DNA of 62,786 nt, counting the filler, from Candidatus Woesearchaeota archaeon (lineage in GTDB: Archaea; Nanobdellota; Nanobdellia; Woesearchaeales; GCA-2687795), in the NCBI GenBank assembly GCA_030753365.1. It is 6 parts of 6 records of this genome, joined end to end, with 100 filler letters (N's around TTAATTAATTAA, not from the genome) between each part and the next. Parts side by side here need not be neighbours in the genome. Positions count along the whole stretch, not along the records: positions 58,351 to 62,786 come from JASMCJ010000024.1; 5 more parts are not named here. One strand, written 5' to 3'. This document shows, piece after piece, positions 20,360 through 62,786 of the stretch; position 1 is the stretch's first letter; every line of letters begins with the position of its first letter. The notes under the pieces are model-generated. The model was not told the DNA's origin. It saw only the letters and a list, made by a program, of their open reading frames with translations, and searched no databases. Made by a program: the position numbers and the translations under genes.

Positions 20360-20464
20360 TTAATTATTTAGTTTGGGTTTTATACCCCGATGCTTGCATC
20401 GGCTTAATACGCAAACTAAATACTAAAAATACCCCGCAGCTTGCTGCGATTGGGATTTTTTATT
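20360..20464 (-). mobile_element. Family A element (copy 2)
   Basis: 105-bp identity to 1807-1911, on a different contig. Confidence 0.8.
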
Positions 20465-20825
20465 GTTCGATGTGTCCTCCTTTTTGTGAATCTTCTAAAC
20501 CCCATGTGTAATAAAGAGATTCAAAAATTCTTTCAATATTTGGGCTGAAAATCTCTTTTGCATAATTTGCAACAAGTGAAGCATACTCCTGGAAAAGATC
20601 TTGCTGATCTTCTGGGATTTCATCACCTGTGAAAGATAATGAAGGAATCATTTCCTTTGCTTGTCGAGCAAGAGCCAGGGGTTCTTCCTGATAAAATTCT
20701 ACTCTAAAAGGAAGCATAGCATAATCAGATAAACATACTCTTGGAGAAAAAAGCCCGCACCCTACCACAAAAGCACTAGCAGACATCGCTGCTGACAGTA
20801 CAATAGTTGTTAAAAATCTTTTCAT
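20460..20825 (-). CDS. Putative lipoprotein
   Basis: Signal peptide ending VVGC. Confidence 0.6.
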   Translation of the reverse strand: MKRFLTTIVLSAAMSASAFVVGCGLFSPRVCLSDYAMLPFRVEFYQEEPLALARQAKEMIPSLSFTGDEIPEDQQDLFQEYASLVANYAKEIFSPNIERIFESLYYTWGLEDSQKGGHIEQ

Positions 20826-36501: not shown

Positions 36502-36593
36502 TATAAAATGATATACTATAAAAAGATTTAAAAATGAGACCTTATCCTTTTTTTAATAAGATTATACATTTCCAATATAATATTAACAATAAT

Positions 36594-37418
36594 ATGAAAA
36601 ATATAATCTCACAATCAAAAAAAGAAAATTATCTATCTTTTATTAAGTCTAATTTTAATAATTTATCTCAAAGAGAGATAGCCAGAAGATTAAATCTCGG
36701 AAAGACAACCATAAACAGATGGGCAGGAGAGGTTGGATTAAGATTCAAAAGACATACAGTTAATGAAGATTTTTTTAATGAGTTTAATGAACAATCATCT
36801 TACATCCTTGGACTTATTTCCTCAGATGGAAATATTTCTTGGAATACTAAAGAAGGTTATTATACTATCACAATTACTGCTTCTGAAAAAGATAAGGAAC
36901 ATCTGGAAAATATTAGAAAGATATTATCAAGTACAAAACCATTAATTTATTCTCTAAAAACTAAATCATATAGATTAATCATAAATAATAAAAATATATG
37001 TAAGAGATTAATGGGGTTAGGTATTACCCCAAGAAAATCATTAACACTAAAATTTCCAGTAATCCCAAAAGAACAACTAAGACATTTTATACGTGGTGTA
37101 ATAGATGGTGATGGCCATGTAAGGTATGTTAAAAGGAAAAAGAGTTCATATTTTGAAATAACAATCTCTTCTGGATCTAAAATATTTTGTGAAGGATTTA
37201 TTAAATCAATAAAAGATTGTATTGGAATAAACACAAATCTCAGAAAAATTGGAGAAAACACATATATCATTCAATATTCATGTTCAAGAGGAGAAAAATT
37301 AGCTGAATTTATTTATTCTAATGCAAATACCTTCTTAGGAAGAAAGTATTTGCCATATAAAAACAATATTTTGGAGGATGAGAAAAATGGTAAAAGAAAA
37401 ACGTCTATTAACAAGTGA
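36594..37418 (+). CDS. Free-standing HTH + double-motif LAGLIDADG endonuclease (start 36534 or 36594)
   Basis: [39 protein letters not shown]; no intein splice motifs. Confidence 0.85.
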
Positions 37419-51980: not shown

Positions 51981-53387
51981 ATGAAAGAGAAGCTAGAGAA
52001 ACTAAACGATTACGAATGGTTGTTGCCGAAAACAGCAAGAAAAGAGATGAAGGTAGATGCAAAAATAATTGCTAATAAAACTATATTAGATGCTATTGAA
52101 GATGATGCTGTAGAGCAATTAACAAATGTGGCAACGTTGCCTGGTGTAATAGAGCCAGTTATAGGTATGAGCGATATGCATTGGGGCTACGGCTTGCCAA
52201 TGGGGGCTGTTATGGCATTTGATAAGGAAGATGGGTTCATAAGCAGCGGTTGCACTGGCTTCGACATAAACTGTGGAATTAACTCAATAAGAACCAATTT
52301 AAGCTATAATGAAGTTAAAGATAAGTTAAAAGAATTAATTTCTGAATTGTTCAAAACTATTCCCTGCGGTGTTGGTTCTAAAGGTAAATTGAGATTAACT
52401 AATGACCAGTTAGATGAAGTTATGGTAAAGGGGGTAAACTGGGCTGTTAAGAACAATTATGGAGTTAAAGATGATATTAAAAATATGGAAGAAAATGGAT
52501 GTATGGAAGGCGCTGACCCAAACAAGGTTTCTGATTTAGCCAAGAAAAGGGGAGTTCCTCAGCTAGGAACGCTTGGTGCTGGAAATCATTTCTTGGAGAT
52601 ACAGAAAGTCTCAGAAATATTTGATAAAGAATATGCAAATAAATTAGGTATTAACAATCAAGATCAGGTTTTAATTATGTTACATTGCGGTTCAAGGGGT
52701 TTTGGGCATCAGGTTGCATCAGATTATCTGAAAATCCATGAAAAGGCTGTTGATAAGTATAATATTAAATTGCCTGACAAACAGTTAGTTGGAGCTCCTG
52801 CTAACTCTGAAGAAGGGCAGGATTATCTTAAAGCTATGAAATGCGCTGTTAATTACAGTTTTACAAACAGGCTTGTTATGACGCAATGGATAAGGGAAAC
52901 TTTTGAGAAGGTTTTTGGAAAGAGCTGGGAGGATATGGATATGCATACTGTTTATTCTATTGCTCATAATATAACTAAAATAGAAAAACATAAAGTCGAA
53001 GGCAAAGAAAAAGAGATTTATATAACCAGGAAAGGAGCAACAAGAGCATTTCCTGATATTCCTGCTTTAATTGCTGGAACTATGGGTACTGCTTCTTTTA
53101 TATGCAAAGGAACAGAAATAGCAATGGAGAAAACATTTGGCAGCACAGTACATGGAGCTGGAAGGGCGATGTCAAGGCACGCTGCTATAGATAAGTTCTG
53201 GGGCGGAGATGTCAAAAAGGAACTGGCAGAAAGAGGAATAATCGCTCAATCAACACATCCTAAAGTATTAGCTGAGGAAAGCCCTCAAGCTTACAAAAAC
53301 GTGATTGACGTAGTAGAAAGTGTACATAATGCTGGGATTTCACCTAAAGTAGTTAAATTAACTCCTATGGGAGTTTGTAAAGGTTAG
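51981..53387 (+). CDS. rtcB: RNA-splicing ligase RtcB
   Basis: DMHWGYG, GFDINCG, GNHF, HCGSRG, AHN, HGAGR. Confidence 0.96.
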   Translation: MKEKLEKLNDYEWLLPKTARKEMKVDAKIIANKTILDAIEDDAVEQLTNVATLPGVIEPVIGMSDMHWGYGLPMGAVMAFDKEDGFISSGCTGFDINCGINSIRTNLSYNEVKDKLKELISELFKTIPCGVGSKGKLRLTNDQLDEVMVKGVNWAVKNNYGVKDDIKNMEENGCMEGADPNKVSDLAKKRGVPQLGTLGAGNHFLEIQKVSEIFDKEYANKLGINNQDQVLIMLHCGSRGFGHQVASDYLKIHEKAVDKYNIKLPDKQLVGAPANSEEGQDYLKAMKCAVNYSFTNRLVMTQWIRETFEKVFGKSWEDMDMHTVYSIAHNITKIEKHKVEGKEKEIYITRKGATRAFPDIPALIAGTMGTASFICKGTEIAMEKTFGSTVHGAGRAMSRHAAIDKFWGGDVKKELAERGIIAQSTHPKVLAEESPQAYKNVIDVVESVHNAGISPKVVKLTPMGVCKG

Positions 53388-54293
53388 TGTTTCCTTCATT
53401 GATTTATTTAGTAAATTATTTTCCAACATTTTCCTTACAGATTCTACTTCTTGTATATTAAGTTCATAATACACGGTGCCATGTCCATTTACACAGCGAT
53501 ATATTTTAGACTTAATCTTAAACAAATCATATAGATGCTTTGATAATTTCTTTAGATTATCTTCTTTTATAGAATTAAAGCGAACATAGATTGGCTTACC
53601 CCTACACAACTTAGGTTTTGCTTTTTTCTTTAACATATGTTCTATAAAATTCTTTAATTTGATTGGGCCTTCTGGAAATTTCCAAGTGTAATCAACATAA
53701 GAATTAACAATCTTAGGTAATTTCTTTCTTTTTTCACTATGGAGGAAGCCTATTTCTTTATGGAATTTGGTAAGGTCATCTTTTCCATATATTCCTAAGT
53801 AAGATATATTTCTTCCGTTTCGTTTCTTTACAATTGAATCTATGCCAAAAACCGCTTTTAGTAGACTCCGTATTTGTAATAACCCTTTATGGTTAAGGGA
53901 ATGTACTCCGATTGTTCTAGTTTGGTGAGGTCTAAATTGGAGCCAGCCTTCTGAATCAAAAAATGCTCTTAACCATAAACTTAAACCTTGTTTATCTAAA
54001 AATTCTATGGGAATTTCCCAATTTTCTGTATAATAAGGCTCATATTTCATTAATTTTTCATAGATTTTATTTTGGGTGCCAGAGTAACAATACAATATTT
54101 TTTTGTTTTTTACTTTTTTGATTGTTATTTTATGATTTATATCGCATAGCCTTTCAAATCTCTTCTTAAAATCTTTAACAAGAGTTAGATTTGTGTTACT
54201 AAACCTTATGCACACTTCTTTATCCCTTCCACTAATATACCCATCTCCACAAAGATATCCGTGAATTGCTGCCAAATTTTGATTAATTTTCAT
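53358..54293 (-). CDS. Free-standing LAGLIDADG endonuclease with an extra C-terminal domain
   Basis: IHGYLCGDG; WLRAFFDSEG; IGF...K...L; no intein motifs. Confidence 0.85.
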   Translation of the reverse strand: MKINQNLAAIHGYLCGDGYISGRDKEVCIRFSNTNLTLVKDFKKRFERLCDINHKITIKKVKNKKILYCYSGTQNKIYEKLMKYEPYYTENWEIPIEFLDKQGLSLWLRAFFDSEGWLQFRPHQTRTIGVHSLNHKGLLQIRSLLKAVFGIDSIVKKRNGRNISYLGIYGKDDLTKFHKEIGFLHSEKRKKLPKIVNSYVDYTWKFPEGPIKLKNFIEHMLKKKAKPKLCRGKPIYVRFNSIKEDNLKKLSKHLYDLFKIKSKIYRCVNGHGTVYYELNIQEVESVRKMLENNLLNKSMKETLTFTNSHRS

Positions 54294-57733: not shown

Positions 57734-57877
57734 AAAAAAGATGTAACCCTTATTGTTTTAAATAGTTTTTGGAAATAGGTATAAAAAGATATAAAAAGAT
57801 GTATTAATAAAAAGGGATTCAACAATTTTATAAATAAATGTAGATTTGTGAAATTATAAACGTTGAGGTGAAGAAAT

Positions 57878-58165
57878 ATGATAAAAGATTTAGAAGCAAG
57901 GCAAGGTAATGTTGATATTGTTGTGGAAGTAATGGAAGTTAGCGAAGCGAAAGAGTTTGAAAAGTTTGGGAAACAGGGTAAAGTGGCTAATGCTATGGTG
58001 AAAGATGAGAGCGGAGAAATAAAGCTTACTCTTTGGAATGATGATATTGATAAAATAAAAGTTGGAGATAAGATTCATATAATAAATGGCTATGTAGGAG
58101 AATGGCAGGGCGAGAAACAGTTGTCAACAGGTAAGTTTGGACAGATGGAAGTTGTGAAGGAATAG
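57878..58165 (+). CDS. ssb: Single-OB-fold ssDNA-binding protein
   Basis: GKVANA.VKDESGEIKLTLW; NGY..EWQG. Confidence 0.88.
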   Translation: MIKDLEARQGNVDIVVEVMEVSEAKEFEKFGKQGKVANAMVKDESGEIKLTLWNDDIDKIKVGDKIHIINGYVGEWQGEKQLSTGKFGQMEVVKE

Positions 58166-58250
58166 GGCATCTATCCTAAAACAAAAACTTTATAAACATA
58201 AAGCTTCAGGATTTGTATAAAGAAAGAGGTGATTAGTATGATTGATAAGA

Positions 58251-58350
58251 NNNNNNNNNNNNNNNNNNNNNNNNNNNNNNNNNNNNNNNNNNNNTTAATT
58301 AATTAANNNNNNNNNNNNNNNNNNNNNNNNNNNNNNNNNNNNNNNNNNNN
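58251..58350. other. Artificial contig linker
   Basis: N-run with TTAATTAATTAA. Confidence 0.98.
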
Positions 58351-58351
58351 A

Positions 58352-58639
58352 CTGTCTAACCTTTGTTATGAAAGCGAAGACTCTCCAGTAATCTACAATG
58401 AAGCCTTTTATGTAGACCCATCCACTTGGACAGTACCTTCTTCAAGATACTTTGTTAATGAAGAAGAACAAGTCATATCAAAGAAGGACCAACCAATAGA
58501 AGCCCTATTCAACACAATCATGGCAAATGAATATGACAGTTGTTATATAAATGACAATCCCTGCCCCTTTACTTTAATTGAATTCCAGCAGTCTAACGAA
58601 GACCAAATAGAAGAAAATGACATAATCAACTTTCCTTAA
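58352..58639 (+). CDS. C-terminal fragment of an unknown protein
   Basis: Frame open from contig start to TAA 58637-58639. Confidence 0.55.
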   Translation: MSNLCYESEDSPVIYNEAFYVDPSTWTVPSSRYFVNEEEQVISKKDQPIEALFNTIMANEYDSCYINDNPCPFTLIEFQQSNEDQIEENDIINFP

Positions 58640-58704
58640 ACCTTCTTTACTTACAAATCATCAACGAATAAATTTAAATACTTCCAACACCAAGAAATTC
58701 TAAA

Positions 58705-58977
58705 ATGCGTAAAAAAGCACAAGGTCTTCCATTAAATGTAATAGTCATGGCAGTCCTTGCATTAGTAGTGCTCATAGTCTTAGTACTAATCTTCAGAGGC
58801 CAGGTAGGAGTATTCAACAAAGGCACAAGCTGTGATGCAAGAGGCGGCAAATGTATGAACAGTGAATCAGGAGAAGTATGCCCTTCTGAAAGGCCAATAA
58901 AAATCTACACACAGGAATGTCCTGTAGTAGGAGATGGCAAAGGAGCAGGCCAATGCTGTATTCCATTAGGACAATAA
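58705..58977 (+). CDS. Type IV pilin-like protein with six-Cys tail
   Basis: MRKKA/QG then hydrophobic helix; CDARGGKC..C..C..CC. Confidence 0.8.
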   Translation: MRKKAQGLPLNVIVMAVLALVVLIVLVLIFRGQVGVFNKGTSCDARGGKCMNSESGEVCPSERPIKIYTQECPVVGDGKGAGQCCIPLGQ

Positions 58978-59073
58978 ATTGCGGAAAGATATCCACCTTT
59001 TAAGGTGAAGTAACTTGGAGAAATTTGCTCAAAATTCGTGTTAGTGGTGCAGAAAAGCCCATGAATTTTTTCA
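58978..59073 (+). mobile_element. Family B element (copy 2, ~20-nt internal deletion)
   Basis: Shares GAAAGATATC, CCTTTTAAGGTG, AATTTGCTCAAAATTCGTG and AATTTTTTCA with copy 1. Confidence 0.7.
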
Positions 59074-59075
59074 AA

Positions 59076-59309
59076 ATGATAAAATCAAAAAAAGCAATCA
59101 TAATGTCACAGATTGTCTGGGCAGCCCTTGCCCTAATTGTAATAATAATCTCAGTTCTAATAATAACCGGCCAGCTGGGCGCTGTCAACAAAACCTTAAA
59201 CGACTGTGAATCAAAAGGTGGAGAATGCATTCTAGCAGATGAATGCGATTCTGGCCCATCCTTCCTTCCGGGTTGTAAAGACAACACTATCTGCTGCATA
59301 AGCCCATAA
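59076..59309 (+). CDS. Type IV pilin-like protein with six-Cys tail
   Basis: MIKSKKA/II then hydrophobic helix; CESKGGEC..C..C..CC. Confidence 0.75.
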   Translation: MIKSKKAIIMSQIVWAALALIVIIISVLIITGQLGAVNKTLNDCESKGGECILADECDSGPSFLPGCKDNTICCISP

Positions 59310-59310
59310 A

Positions 59311-59793
59311 ATGAAACACACCAAAAAAGCAGCCTTAACATGGCAAATCATAGTGCCCCTAATCCTTGCAGTTTTAATTATCGCAATAATCCTTGCAATC
59401 TCAAACCCTATCTTTCTTCAGGGCTGGCAGGCCTCAAAATACCATTCAACAGAAAAAAGGCTAAACTTTTGCATAAGCTATGGCGAATCAGGCAAATACC
59501 CTGATACAGATAGAGATGAAAATGATAACATTAAGCCTGACGGCCTCCCAGACTTCTGTGACAACTGCCCTCTTGTCTATGGCAAGCCAGAAGTGGATGA
59601 TAAGGGAAAGCTTAGCTTTCATAAAGACATTGATGGTGATTTTGACCTATTTATAGAAGGCTGCATAGGCAATGATGGTTCAATCCCTCCTCAGCCTTCT
59701 GGAAAAAAAGAAACCTCAGAATTAGATAATAAACCCAAGATATCCCCTGATTACAAATGGAAAGGCAACCTTCCAGAAAAAGAAACAACCTAA
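59311..59793 (+). CDS. Pilin-like protein with thrombospondin type-3-like Ca-binding motifs
   Basis: MKHTKKA/AL; DTDRD, DGLPDFCDNCP, DIDGD. Confidence 0.72.
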   Translation: MKHTKKAALTWQIIVPLILAVLIIAIILAISNPIFLQGWQASKYHSTEKRLNFCISYGESGKYPDTDRDENDNIKPDGLPDFCDNCPLVYGKPEVDDKGKLSFHKDIDGDFDLFIEGCIGNDGSIPPQPSGKKETSELDNKPKISPDYKWKGNLPEKETT

Positions 59794-59800
59794 AAATCAA

Positions 59801-60502
59801 ATGAAACCTTTCTCCAACAAAAAAGCCCAGGAAGGCATAACCCTTACCCAAGCAATAGGCATAGTCTTAGCAGTAATTGCGATACTTGCATTAACCTTTC
59901 TCATAGCCAAGATAAGTGCTCCTTTCTTCAACAAACAAGGCTATACTGCCACAAAAAACAACTTTGATGAGCTAACAGATAAAGTACAGGAAATGTTAGA
60001 AAAAGATGGTTTAGCTGTTGAAAGGTTTTTCCCTTACTATATAGGAAAGGAATATGCTCTCATGGCTTTTGGCAAAGAAGACACTATAGCAGGGCCTAAA
60101 TCTTTAACTGTTTATGATGAGCAACTAACTTTACTCAAGCCAGACTTCTGTGCTAAAAAAGCATGTTTATGCTTCTATAAAGATATAAGATATGTTGTAG
60201 GGCAGAATGGATTTGAACCACTTACAATCCCAGAAACAAAAGATAACAATGTTTTGCACTGCAAAACCTTTGAAGGAGACATAACATTCTTCACCACTTC
60301 TTCAGAATTCATTGGAGGAGAACTAGCCCAAACCCCTCCTACTTTTCATCCAGGAGACGAATATACCTATATAGTACAACCCACCGGAGTAAAAGGAATC
60401 CAAAACTTTTACATGGAAAAACTGGAAAAAAACAGCAAGATTTACTTCTACATAACCACAGAAGATGATGATACACAAATTAGATATAATTCTTTAATCT
60501 AG
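59801..60502 (+). CDS. Pilin-like protein
   Basis: NKKA/QEG then hydrophobic helix; C..KACLC. Confidence 0.75.
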   Translation: MKPFSNKKAQEGITLTQAIGIVLAVIAILALTFLIAKISAPFFNKQGYTATKNNFDELTDKVQEMLEKDGLAVERFFPYYIGKEYALMAFGKEDTIAGPKSLTVYDEQLTLLKPDFCAKKACLCFYKDIRYVVGQNGFEPLTIPETKDNNVLHCKTFEGDITFFTTSSEFIGGELAQTPPTFHPGDEYTYIVQPTGVKGIQNFYMEKLEKNSKIYFYITTEDDDTQIRYNSLI

Positions 60503-60629
60503 TTTCACCAAAACCTTTATATATGTATACATCTGCTATGTATTAAATACAGCACAATTTAATACAAGGTGCTGAGAAATCAAAGATTTCTGGCACCTCA
60601 AATTTTTAAAAAAATTTAAGGTGATACTA

Positions 60630-60938
60630 ATGGGAGAAACAATAACAACAAGGGTAGATAATGAGATGGCAAAGGATATTGCCTTCTTTTCAGATATAAA
60701 CAAGCTGGATAAGTCCACAATAACAAGAAGGCTGTTAGCCAAATCATTGGAAGAAGAAAAGCTAGCTTATGCGCTTCACAGATACAAAAATGGAGAGATA
60801 ACAATAGGAAAAGCTGCTGAGCTTGTAAAAAAAGACCTAAGAGAGATGCTCTTTTTAGCCTCAAAGAGAGGAATTCACTTCCAGTACTCATTAAAAGAAT
60901 TAAGAGAAGACTTTGAGGCAGCAAAAAAGAAAAAATGA
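60630..60938 (+). CDS. UPF0175-family antitoxin (RHH + HTH)
   Basis: TITTRVD; YKNGEITIGKAAEL. Confidence 0.82.
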   Translation: MGETITTRVDNEMAKDIAFFSDINKLDKSTITRRLLAKSLEEEKLAYALHRYKNGEITIGKAAELVKKDLREMLFLASKRGIHFQYSLKELREDFEAAKKKK

Positions 60939-61438
60939 TAGCCTGCAATTCAACAGTTTTAATATTTCTGTCAAAGTTGGATAAGCTCAGCTTACTAAAA
61001 GAATTATTCAAGCAGGTGCTCATACCCGAAGAAGTAAAAAGAGAAGTAGTTGATGAAGGAAAAAGAAAGAACCATATTGATGCCATTGAGACTGAAAAGG
61101 CAATAAATGAAGGCTGGATAAAAGTAGAAAACACAGAAATCCATCCCCTCCTTATGGACATAGGCATTGATAAGGGAGAAGCAGAAGCAATCTCTTTAGC
61201 TTACAAAAAGAAACTGGGAGTTCTATTAGACCAAACGCATGCAAGAGAAGCAGCTAAGCTATTAGTCGTTGGTCCTAAAGGCACATTATATGTCTTATTA
61301 TTAGCCTTAAAAAAGAGGTTAATAAGCTATGATGACTACATGCTTAGCCTGTTTGACTTAATCCAGTTTGGCTTTAGAATGTCTGAAGGAGTATATCTCG
61401 AAGCAGTAAGGCTTGGAAAAGAACTAGCAAAGAAATAA
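60935..61438 (+). CDS. PIN-domain DUF3368 toxin (VapC-like)
   Basis: NSTVLI, IPEEV..E, DKGEAEAI.LA, GT..VL. Confidence 0.85.
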   Translation: MIACNSTVLIFLSKLDKLSLLKELFKQVLIPEEVKREVVDEGKRKNHIDAIETEKAINEGWIKVENTEIHPLLMDIGIDKGEAEAISLAYKKKLGVLLDQTHAREAAKLLVVGPKGTLYVLLLALKKRLISYDDYMLSLFDLIQFGFRMSEGVYLEAVRLGKELAKK

Positions 61439-61449
61439 TCTTCTAAAAA

Positions 61450-62520
61450 ATGTTTAAAAAAAACAAAAAAGCAGCCATAAATGAACAAACCTACATGCTG
61501 ATAATAAACATTGTTATTATCGTCATTGTATGGGGCCTTGTCTTCAACTATGTAAGGTCTGTAGGAAACAATACCTTAGTTGAAAAGATATACCTCTCCA
61601 AAGACATTGCATTGCTAACGAACATAATCTCTTCCTCACCAGGCAACATCTTCTATACTTATTCAAACTCCAGCAACAAGCTTGACATCACAAAATATCT
61701 CTACTCTTTCAAAGATAGTTATGTAAAAGTCAAAGAAAATGAAAAAGACAACCAAGTCTATTTCCCGTATGCAAAAGACCTCTCCTTTGAAAACAGCTTT
61801 CCTAACCTTATTGAAAATCCTGAAGAAATTCACTTTGTAAAAACAGGCAATAAGCTATCCATTGATAAATCTTTAACCTCCAACCTAAACCAAATCTCCT
61901 GCCCAGACATCAAAATAGAAGAAGAATTAGCCAATCAAAACATACTACTTGACCCAGGTCATGGAAAGGATCCAAACAGAGACATAGCATCAGATGATTT
62001 TGGCTTAGAATTCAAAGATTATTATCGAAAAAACAAGAAAGAAGCATACATAACCACTCAGATATCTAATGGTGTTAAAACTAATTATATTAATAATAAT
62101 AAAGTAAAGCAAACAAGAAACTATGACACTCCCTTATCCATACAGACAAGAAAAGATTCAGCAAAAGATGCCCACATAATAATCAGCATCCATATAGGAA
62201 ACTACTCAAACAGTTACAACACAATAAAAGCATTCATCCCATACAAAACAACCAAATTTCTTCAAAGCAGAAAGCTTGCCTGCAGCATTCTAAACTCTTT
62301 CCCTCCTGAGCTTGAATTAGATGGCATTGTAATCATCCCTGTTGACACTTCAACTCTACAAAAGGACAATCCAATGCAAATCATAAACTTTGAAGACAAA
62401 ACAGCAGTCTTATTAGAAATAGGCAACATAAACACAGAGCAAGGAAGAAGCATGTTCAACCAACCATCAAAACTATCCGACAGCATATACACTGGACTAA
62501 CAAAATACTATTCAAAATGA
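61450..62520 (+). CDS. Pilin-like protein fused to N-acetylmuramoyl-L-alanine amidase (Amidase_3)
   Basis: KNKKA/AINE then TM; LLDPGHG, KKEA, TR, IISIH, AVLLEIGN. Confidence 0.82.
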   Translation: MFKKNKKAAINEQTYMLIINIVIIVIVWGLVFNYVRSVGNNTLVEKIYLSKDIALLTNIISSSPGNIFYTYSNSSNKLDITKYLYSFKDSYVKVKENEKDNQVYFPYAKDLSFENSFPNLIENPEEIHFVKTGNKLSIDKSLTSNLNQISCPDIKIEEELANQNILLDPGHGKDPNRDIASDDFGLEFKDYYRKNKKEAYITTQISNGVKTNYINNNKVKQTRNYDTPLSIQTRKDSAKDAHIIISIHIGNYSNSYNTIKAFIPYKTTKFLQSRKLACSILNSFPPELELDGIVIIPVDTSTLQKDNPMQIINFEDKTAVLLEIGNINTEQGRSMFNQPSKLSDSIYTGLTKYYSK

Positions 62521-62786
62521 ACAAAAAAGCAATACTATCATTCAACCAATTAATGGCCTTTATCAGAATCTTGCTCTTAATAGTAGTCATGTTCGCCATA
62601 GTATTCCTTGTAAACTCTGCCATAACCATGGAAATAAACACCTTTAATGCTGAATCAGAGCTATTCATCCAGCAATTACTTTACTCCAACGCCTTAATGC
62701 TCAACGACTATGAAACTGACAGGTTCTATCCTGCAATAATTGACTTAAACAAATTCAACTCCCTTGAAGTGGAAGAAGATCTAAAC
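62517..62786 (+). CDS. Pilin-like protein (3' truncated, absent from the ORF track)
   Basis: ATGA-coupled; MNKKA/ILSFNQLMAFIRILLLIVVMFAIVFLV. Confidence 0.75.
   Translation, partial: MNKKAILSFNQLMAFIRILLLIVVMFAIVFLVNSAITMEINTFNAESELFIQQLLYSNALMLNDYETDRFYPAIIDLNKFNSLEVEEDLN

Follow-up and report, generated by a model that had tools for sequence, protein, structure and literature searches.

A pilin-like protein with an Amidase_3 domain in Woesearchaeales: candidate tip subunit of a wall-directed archaeal type IV filament

Background

Wall hydrolases from Archaea have already been published; their combination with a pilin carrier, which we describe here, appears to be new. Our subject is a gene at 61450..62520 (+ strand) of a 62,786-nucleotide window, i.e. 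the whole stretch of DNA that was analysed, which consists of contigs of a single genome joined via N spacers (Candidatus Woesearchaeota archaeon, order Woesearchaeales, assembly GCA_030753365.1). The gene encodes a protein in which a basic leader and a pilin-like head are followed by a predicted Amidase_3 domain, and it opens a conserved cassette of four genes, to which we refer as the anchor (the homologue of the fusion gene) and the +1, +2 and +3 genes. We propose, with moderate confidence, that this protein belongs to the tip of a type IV filament, which grips and nicks the peptidoglycan of Bacteria on contact. Searches of the open-licence literature yielded no pilin-fused wall hydrolases of Archaea; some of the genes could be contained in tables S4-S5 of PMC13705601 and in table S2 of PMC12352652.

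The modular archaeal hydrolases Woldo and Danwoldo (Strock et al. 2025, PMC12352652) share with the present system the bacterial wall enzymes, the prominence of Nanoarchaeota and the shuffling of domains. According to the available part of that paper, they are patchily distributed, often plasmid-borne, Sec/Tat-secreted and found in 5% of Archaea, whereas the cassette described here is a near-core chromosomal pilin carrier. The survey was defined by the presence of both a catalytic and a wall-binding domain; because of this requirement, pilin-fused catalytic domains fall outside its filter, as does the fusion protein, in which a Pfam scan finds no wall-binding domain. The word "pilin" does not occur in the text of PMC12352652 available to us. 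The "vampiristic" murein transglycosylases of Woesearchaeota (Vigneron et al. 2022, PMC9723730) share with our system the lineage label and the proposed attack on Bacteria; however, the accessible text describes GH23 in nine metagenome-assembled genomes (MAGs) and no delivery device, and contains neither "pili" nor "amidase". Finally, the schemes of archaeal type IV filaments, as far as their available portions go (PMC4858521, PMC13705601, PMC11291902), share the VirB11-type ATPase, the platform and the class III peptidase, scattered in Nanobdellati. In the same portions of PMC4858521 and PMC13705601, both surveys of archaeal type IV systems, "peptidoglycan" does not occur, and coiled-coil proteins together with GroEL/GatE characterise the two DPANN pilus loci of PMC11291902, unlike the cassette discussed here.

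The solved Amidase_3 enzymes (CwlD 7rag, AmiC 4bin, AmiB 8c0j, LytH 7tj4, CwlV 1jwq) share with the fusion protein the fold (Z 19.8-20.9) and the order His-Glu-His plus Glu of the catalytic residues; the fusion differs by its pilin-like head, by its occurrence in an organism without detected wall synthesis, by the lack of a wall-binding repeat, and by H-x-G and E-x-G-N where the enzymes have H-x-N/D and E-x-G-F/Y. In the pseudopilin tip of the type II secretion system (T2SS), GspI sits between GspJ and GspK, which serves as our model for the placement of the fusion head. With this tip (3ci0, 2ret) and with the type IVa priming complexes, the cassette shares a run of minor pilins after small major-pilin candidates and a head predicted to lie between two partners; the best fold matches of the head, weak as they are, are EpsI and GspI. 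It differs by the absence of a sequence match, by Z-scores at chance level, by having no secretin expected, and by subunits that bear enzymes. The comparison with GspI thus concerns the way of working and not family membership. In Streptococcus sanguinis, modular pilins (PilB-vWA, PilC-lectin) reportedly carry an adhesin module on the C-terminus of a minor pilin; the grafting at the C-terminus is said to be the same, whereas here the modules are wall hydrolases of many families, in Archaea.

Results and discussion

Architecture of the fusion protein

61450..62520, + strand: pilin-amidase fusion, 356 amino acids (aa), first gene of the conserved four-gene cassette
61450..61473, + strand: basic leader MFKKNKKA, with the predicted prepilin-peptidase site after it
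61474..61905, + strand: pilin-like head, residues 9-152, a long helix followed by antiparallel strands, weakly resembling GspI/EpsI and the type IV pilins of Bacteria
61942..62502, + strand: Amidase_3 domain, residues 165-351
61960-62, 62041-43, 62191-93 and 62416-18, + strand: codons of the catalytic residues H171, E198, H248 and E323

A sequence-only reading of this DNA had assigned the C-terminal domain to Amidase_3 and named the motifs with the four characteristic residues. Both claims are borne out: residues 165-351 match PF01520 well over the curated cut-off (E 5e-14, 53.1 bits versus 27), and the family profile aligns the motifs of H171, E198, H248 and E323 with those of solved amidases. 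We take the His, Glu and His to be zinc ligands and the second Glu to be catalytic. In the AlphaFold model built from 35 homologues (pLDDT 88.4), a long helix at the N-terminus leads into a head rich in strands, and a linker joins this head to the amidase, which is closest to CwlD (VIA Z 20.9, root-mean-square deviation 2.3, 172 residues aligned) and AmiC (Z 20.3), with the first non-amidase row at Z 10.9; Foldseek gives a match at E 3e-10. In this predicted structure the C-terminal domain has the Amidase_3 fold, and by alignment its catalytic set is intact.

The leader KKA/A is basic and ends in Ala before the hydrophobic helix, which fits the class III signal pattern; the predicted site after KKA follows the cleavage consensus of prepilin peptidases. 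The motif [KR][KRN][GAS] precedes the first hydrophobic helix in 117 of the 128 homologues with such a helix, compared with 26 of the 165 open reading frames (ORFs) of the genome that have an N-terminal helix, so that the class III signal suggested earlier occurs above chance. The head, modelled with pLDDT 91.9 as a long helix plus antiparallel strands, finds its best matches in EpsI (Z 4.2, deviation 4.0, 65 aligned), PilA4 (4.0) and GspI (3.7), all weak; bacterial pilins or pseudopilins make up 11 of the top 50 rows, and none reaches Z 5. Close relatives (rows P0002, P0003 and P0005 of L002-L005; L056, L057) have a Gly-rich insertion in the linker, FGGG-FGGAG-TG-W-like, which is missing here.

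Distribution of the cassette and origin of the contig

The profile of the fusion family matches 165 of 201 genomes of the same order, nearly always once (the tally includes two unpublished genomes), and with the head alone as query there are 2,154 matching clusters at 50% identity. In most of the 20 extended loci a long series of class III genes in one orientation includes the anchor close to its end, then come +1, +2 and +3, and the cassette is followed by RPA, YdjM and RadA. The +3 head was detected in 199 of the 251 genomes of a phylum-wide draw, with all matches within the class. In other orders the anchor is bare (129-151 aa in 8/8 loci fetched), and of the 41 matching genomes, the 21 that are listed have +3 frames of 159-295 aa; Pfam domains were found in none of six such +3 proteins scanned.

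The pilin-like gene run lies by itself on contig C24 (4,436 bp, window positions 58351-62786), within an 897-kb genome estimated as 94.5% complete with 1.5% contamination. To the left it is bounded by the following feature:

58251..58350, no strand: artificial spacer of N's at a contig join, to the right of which the real locus starts

Because the spacer marks a contig join, nothing left of 58351 is a neighbour, and the genes on that side were dropped from consideration. A contig of only 4.4 kb with no housekeeping gene might be suspected to be a bacterial contaminant or a chimera, as the sequence-only reading had cautioned. Yet the contig of the relative L056, whose fusion protein is 68% identical, continues through +1, +2 and +3 into RPA, and thereby bridges the locus via +3 to the archaeal RPA contig of the present genome at 93% identity. 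Single contigs from 4/4 independent runs cover 60391-62596 with 0-1 differences, and the single-copy homologues of the order, labelled Candidatus Woesearchaeota archaeon, adjoin RPA and RadA. An archaeal origin of the contig is thus supported, with no sign of contamination, and we regard a bacterial or chimeric origin as hardly credible. No full-length fusion was seen in Bacteria among 10 and 11 protein matches, in a search of limited reach; one match in a bacterial MAG, from a single-protein scan of named genomes, was spurious (21 residues). The stretch is present in 20 runs from 16 studies, 19 of the 20 being labelled seawater, marine or vent metagenomes, and no RNA dataset is listed among them.

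Peptidoglycan-acting domains on the pilin heads

The sequence-only reading had proposed peptidoglycan as the target on the strength of the single amidase; further support comes from the many unrelated wall-cutting families that are swapped onto the same pilin heads. A total of 80 further loci provided 63 +3 proteins with a length of 250 aa or more, of which 33 carry a peptidoglycan-acting family over the cut-off. Nine unrelated families are represented: SLT (10), M23 (10), Amidase_2 (6), NlpC/P60 (2), M15/VanY (2), and M74, 3D, YkuD and glucosaminidase (1 each), with one protein carrying two; in a first set of +3 proteins, such domains were present in 12 of 19. The catalytic E-S/T is in place in 15/15 SLT domains checked, and both M23 motifs, by a strict pattern, in 12/19. 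The split +3 of L063 adds M23 and Amidase_3, and the gene at the -1 position carries SLT, Amidase_2 or VanY domains in some relatives. The anchor head also swaps its cargo: M23 replaces the amidase in L061, and M23, M15 or 3D stands behind a decayed amidase in L062, L111 and L130. Around 148 anchors (150 typed, two unpublished dropped), an SLT, M23 or amidase match lies 1.3-5.5 kb downstream on the same strand of at least 50 (once inside the anchor frame), compared with 5 upstream and none on the opposite strand; 98 SLT matches are unlisted, so these counts are a floor. By chance, about 0.4 of the 222 listed matches would be expected in the downstream position, with kin counted as if independent.

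Judged from these families, the shared target of the cassette cargo is predicted to be peptidoglycan. Since no Mur ligase was found in the source genome, the archaeon's own wall is an unlikely substrate. A related explanation, that the enzymes act on the pseudomurein of a methanogen host or on the archaeon's own envelope, takes its support from the archaeal hosts of the known DPANN (PMC11291902) and from an association with methanogens suggested by co-occurrence (as cited in PMC9723730), both as given in the available portions. We consider it very improbable: among the cargo domains are lytic transglycosylases, D-Ala peptidases, M74 and L,D-transpeptidase folds, types that attack bacterial linkages, pseudomurein is chemically distinct according to the accessible text of PMC12352652, Mur ligases have no match in the genome, and the stretch comes from seawater and vent metagenomes.

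More serious is the suggestion that the enzymes are active and serve to scavenge sugars and peptides from the wall debris of dead bacteria or biofilms, while the true host, if any, is not a bacterium. Of the 201 same-order genomes, 125 have SLT, 92 have M23 and 41 have Amidase_3; SLT and M23 lie mostly away from the cassette, which agrees with such a role, as do the fermentative recycling of cell compounds proposed for the lineage in the available part of PMC9723730 and the fact that all cultivated DPANN Archaea live on archaeal hosts, as stated in that of PMC11291902. However, the rapid swapping of ten enzyme families at fixed pilin positions and the patchy strain variation in the neighbouring pilins look more like target-driven turnover, and a tether at a filament tip suits contact; we find scavenging rather unlikely. 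Given the wall-directed cargo, living bacteria are the likely target.

A restriction of wall enzymes to this order was rejected: of 60 genomes picked by hand from other orders, 30 have SLT and 11 have M23, and the -1 pilin of L075 carries SLT plus Amidase_2. A decayed amidase in the +3 protein of the nearest relative lacks sufficient backing (profile E 0.04, hhalign probability 0.4%, Atlas below the bar) and is retained as a lead only. Over a dozen other-order genomes contain SLT domains in giant frames of 2,000-2,600 aa (for example G406 C1:170253, G281 C1:168812 and G242 C7:16802), a second type of wall-directed surface protein. Non-hydrolase or accessory cargo was also observed in the cassette (L063:5744-7984, L079:6556-7869, L117:5275-6810), namely GDSL esterases, which may de-O-acetylate the wall, and a +3 head that bears a methyltransferase.

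Type IV machinery and the predicted complex of heads

The pilus proposed in the sequence-only reading lacked its machinery in the window; the link to type IV filaments is now strengthened by the loci of other orders and by genes elsewhere in the source genome. In 7/8 other-order loci, a membrane protein of about 720 aa is encoded 2.3-4.1 kb upstream of the cassette (the eighth locus ends at a contig edge). It has no direct match in Pfam, and resembles T2SSF platforms according to hhalign (84.8%, E 6.5e-6), and in its Atlas neighbours 16-21% of the members carry PF00482. Four of these loci have a secretion ATPase ahead of it (by BLAST; PF00437 E 1.6e-10), with all NCBIfam matches far below the cut-off. 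The source genome has an orthologue of the ATPase (52% identity) at the cut end of contig C7, the tail of the platform (42% identity, tblastn) at the start of C77, and an A24/FlaK-like prepilin peptidase on C45; PF00482 finds no match in this genome, and the platform is identified by hhalign and its Atlas neighbours.

Structure prediction, which the sequence-only reading had named as a check of the pilin complex, suggests that the heads bind one another. The four-chain prediction scored 0.73 versus 0.37 for the best control; of 157 solved complexes, 116 attain the mark applied to this score, as do 2 of 215 mismatched pairs, though these counts are only roughly valid for a four-chain job with the alignments used here. 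Repeated runs agree in at least 83% of contacts, with partner pLDDT of at least 71. The fusion head is predicted to contact +1 and +3 along their N-terminal helices.

Proposed mechanism and the evidence on either side

We propose that the fusion protein acts as a minor pilin in a type IV filament system common to the archaeal class, and it is quite probable that this pilin belongs to a tip complex. The prepilin peptidase would remove the basic leader, the head would pack between the +1 and +3 heads into a small priming or tip complex, and the unlinked ATPase and platform, as the gene order in other orders suggests, would extend the filament. The C-terminal zinc amidase would thereby be held at the filament tip, where on contact it would bind and cut the MurNAc-L-Ala bond of bacterial peptidoglycan; to judge from its fold and residues, the present copy is probably active on this substrate. 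The cassette would serve as a chassis, the anchor, +3 and -1 positions of which take up and swap wall-acting domains, and the archaeon would probably use it to attach to a bacterial host or prey and to breach this locally. Only tentatively would we extend this scheme to Woesearchaeales and their kin as a group of bacterial epibionts or predators, with a class-wide filament whose swappable hydrolase tip finds and pierces the wall.

A number of observations weigh against this proposal. Most marine bacteria shield their peptidoglycan under an outer membrane, which leaves the route of a tip enzyme unexplained. The +2 gene and most of +3 of the source genome fall into an assembly gap, SLT and M23 profiles find no match in that genome, the +3 protein of the nearest relative has no Pfam match, and 30 of the 63 +3 proteins lack a wall-enzyme match (including 3 weak cases, one DUF2272 and one methyltransferase). 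On the side of the filament, the best Z of the head, 4.2, is below the usual chance level, Foldseek returns nothing at E 0.001, and no pilin model of Pfam or NCBIfam matches the heads. The synteny of the cassette with ATPase and platform genes, for which a survey had been suggested, holds in the other orders, where the anchor is bare, and breaks down in five same-order genomes, whose ATPase genes are far from the cassette. The predicted complex lists no confident contact to +2, one control reached the above-mentioned 0.37, the +3 chain was taken from a close relative, and similarity to solved pseudopilin tips may account for the pass.

Some of these points would be expected if the proteins were membrane-anchored surface enzymes, or formed a short pseudopilus-like stub without a filament, with the KKA helix as nothing but an anchor: the pilin fold and family matches are not significant, and ATPase and platform are unlinked in this order. 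We nevertheless judge this improbable, considering the leader motif in 117/128 anchors, the ATPase and platform genes that adjoin the cassette in other orders, the predicted helix-bundled complex and the several copies of small class III genes that share the run.

On the side of catalysis, 126 loci of the order were examined, of which 122 gave an anchor. All four catalytic residues are kept in 19 of these, in proteins mostly 23-33% identical, a share that is probably overstated because the loci were picked by score. A further 55 have an amidase domain with residues lost, i.e. 55 of the 74 with the domain (three, two, one or none of the four residues remain in 7, 8, 27 and 13 loci, respectively); 28 anchors are short (3 being split genes) and 20 are long without an amidase match. 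For the 150 best cluster representatives the corresponding numbers, in the same order of classes, are 24, 67, 47 and 12. Since 55 of 74 amidase domains have lost catalytic residues, catalysis at the anchor position is dispensable in most of the order. In addition, the family departs from solved amidases beside two catalytic residues: it has H-x-G instead of H-x-N/D (with Gly in 16 of the 19 intact homologues) and E-x-G-N instead of E-x-G/A-F/Y, so that the specificity or rate of the fusion amidase may differ.

The domain could, in consequence, be regarded as mainly a wall-binding adhesin or a structural tip cap with vestigial catalysis, the cutting being left to the +3 cargo or other enzymes. 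The fold is kept where the catalytic residues are lost, H-x-G points in the same direction, and the +3 protein of the nearest relative ends in a possibly amidase-shaped domain without the motifs, the Atlas lead mentioned above. On the other hand, the present copy is intact, and the four residues persist in 19 loci across the head tree at low identity, which is hard to explain without selection on catalysis; we regard an adhesin or cap as unlikely, if the least so of the alternatives to a wall-nicking tip. The head tree (120 loci, 304 columns) is poorly resolved, with the intact copies scattered over it (15 changes for 17 intact tips), and the rows from other orders do not form one clade; it is compatible with an ancestral fusion and repeated decay, or with transfer. 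The anchor gene is interrupted or split between head and amidase in L039, L047, L126 and L011, and in L039 an opposite-strand TPR gene adjoins the short head.

If the tentative extension to the whole group is right, the filament would be an archaeal contact-dependent weapon against Bacteria, and the cargo set would record the host range. For the widespread Woesearchaeota, a near-core pilin cassette with ten peptidoglycan-acting families gives a concrete and testable indication of contact between many of them and Bacteria. What was a loose hint from genomes can be taken up in assays of single proteins, and the cassette offers a marker in the search for hosts. The figure of 5% published for archaeal wall hydrolases, it further suggests, misses a large class, which uses a filament rather than a binding domain.

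The gene run on the contig

58352..58639, + strand: 3' part of an ORF truncated where the contig starts (95-aa open frame), probably the next gene upstream in the run
58705..58977, + strand: small Cys-rich class III protein, 90 aa, MRKKA/Q; profile of 12 relatives, E 2.4e-22; multi-copy small family
59061..59309, + strand: second small Cys-rich class III protein, 77-82 aa depending on the start codon (59061 or 59076), ..KSKKA/I; same profile, E 3.5e-14
59311..59793, + strand: class III protein, 160 aa, MKHTKKA/A, no family match over the cut-off
59801..60502, + strand: class III protein, 233 aa, ..NKKA/Q, the -1 position, no wall-enzyme domain
60621..60938, + strand: UPF0175 protein, probably antitoxin-like; PF03683, E 2e-11
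60935..61438, + strand: PIN-like/DUF3368 protein, partner of the UPF0175 gene, outside the pilin system; PF11848, E 1.3e-7
62517..62786, + strand: +1 class III gene, MNKKA/I, cut by the contig end

The six co-oriented ORFs in which the sequence-only reading had seen KKA before a hydrophobic run are those starting at 58705, 59061/59076, 59311, 59801, 61450 and 62517, with KKA, strictly, 3-12 residues after the start Met. Their common orientation is confirmed. They do not form an unbroken row, as the UPF0175 and PIN/DUF3368 pair (60621-61438) interrupts the run between the fourth and fifth genes. This pair is absent at the corresponding place of L056, in which the preceding pilin gene directly abuts the fusion. 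The small Cys-rich protein at 58705..58977 is a candidate for the major pilin. The near-identical contig L054 has a complete +1 protein of 195 aa, followed by +2 and the start of +3.

Differences between strains form short dense tracts within the pilin genes (59231-59276, 59484-59535, 62597-62669), for which tract exchange or diversifying selection are possible readings. Compared with L055, 40 of 41 differences fall within the four upstream pilin genes and their spacers, and compared with L054 there are 20 differences in 73 bp of the +1 gene; the amidase gene has none in either comparison. Short sequences near 60564-60599 and 58992-59040 recur elsewhere.

Other observations in the window

Several features on the other contigs were recorded. 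A repeat of about 105 bp (1803-1911 and 20360-20474, 97-100% identical) occurs on at least 15 contigs of the genome and is possibly a small mobile element. A small OB-fold gene region, similar to single-stranded DNA-binding proteins, is duplicated at 83% identity (57817-58250 and C6:1962-2408 of the source genome, G000); like this copy, the duplicated ends of contigs C1, C70 and C9 hint at a strain mixture in the bin. A free-standing LAGLIDADG gene (53358-54293, - strand) overlaps the end of rtcB, and a further LAGLIDADG-like ORF (36534-37418) appears from its sequence to stand ahead of a gene resembling S-adenosylmethionine synthetase. Finally, the product of 313-1764 appears to be a phage-fibre-like tail protein with LamG-like, repeat and intramolecular-chaperone-like parts.

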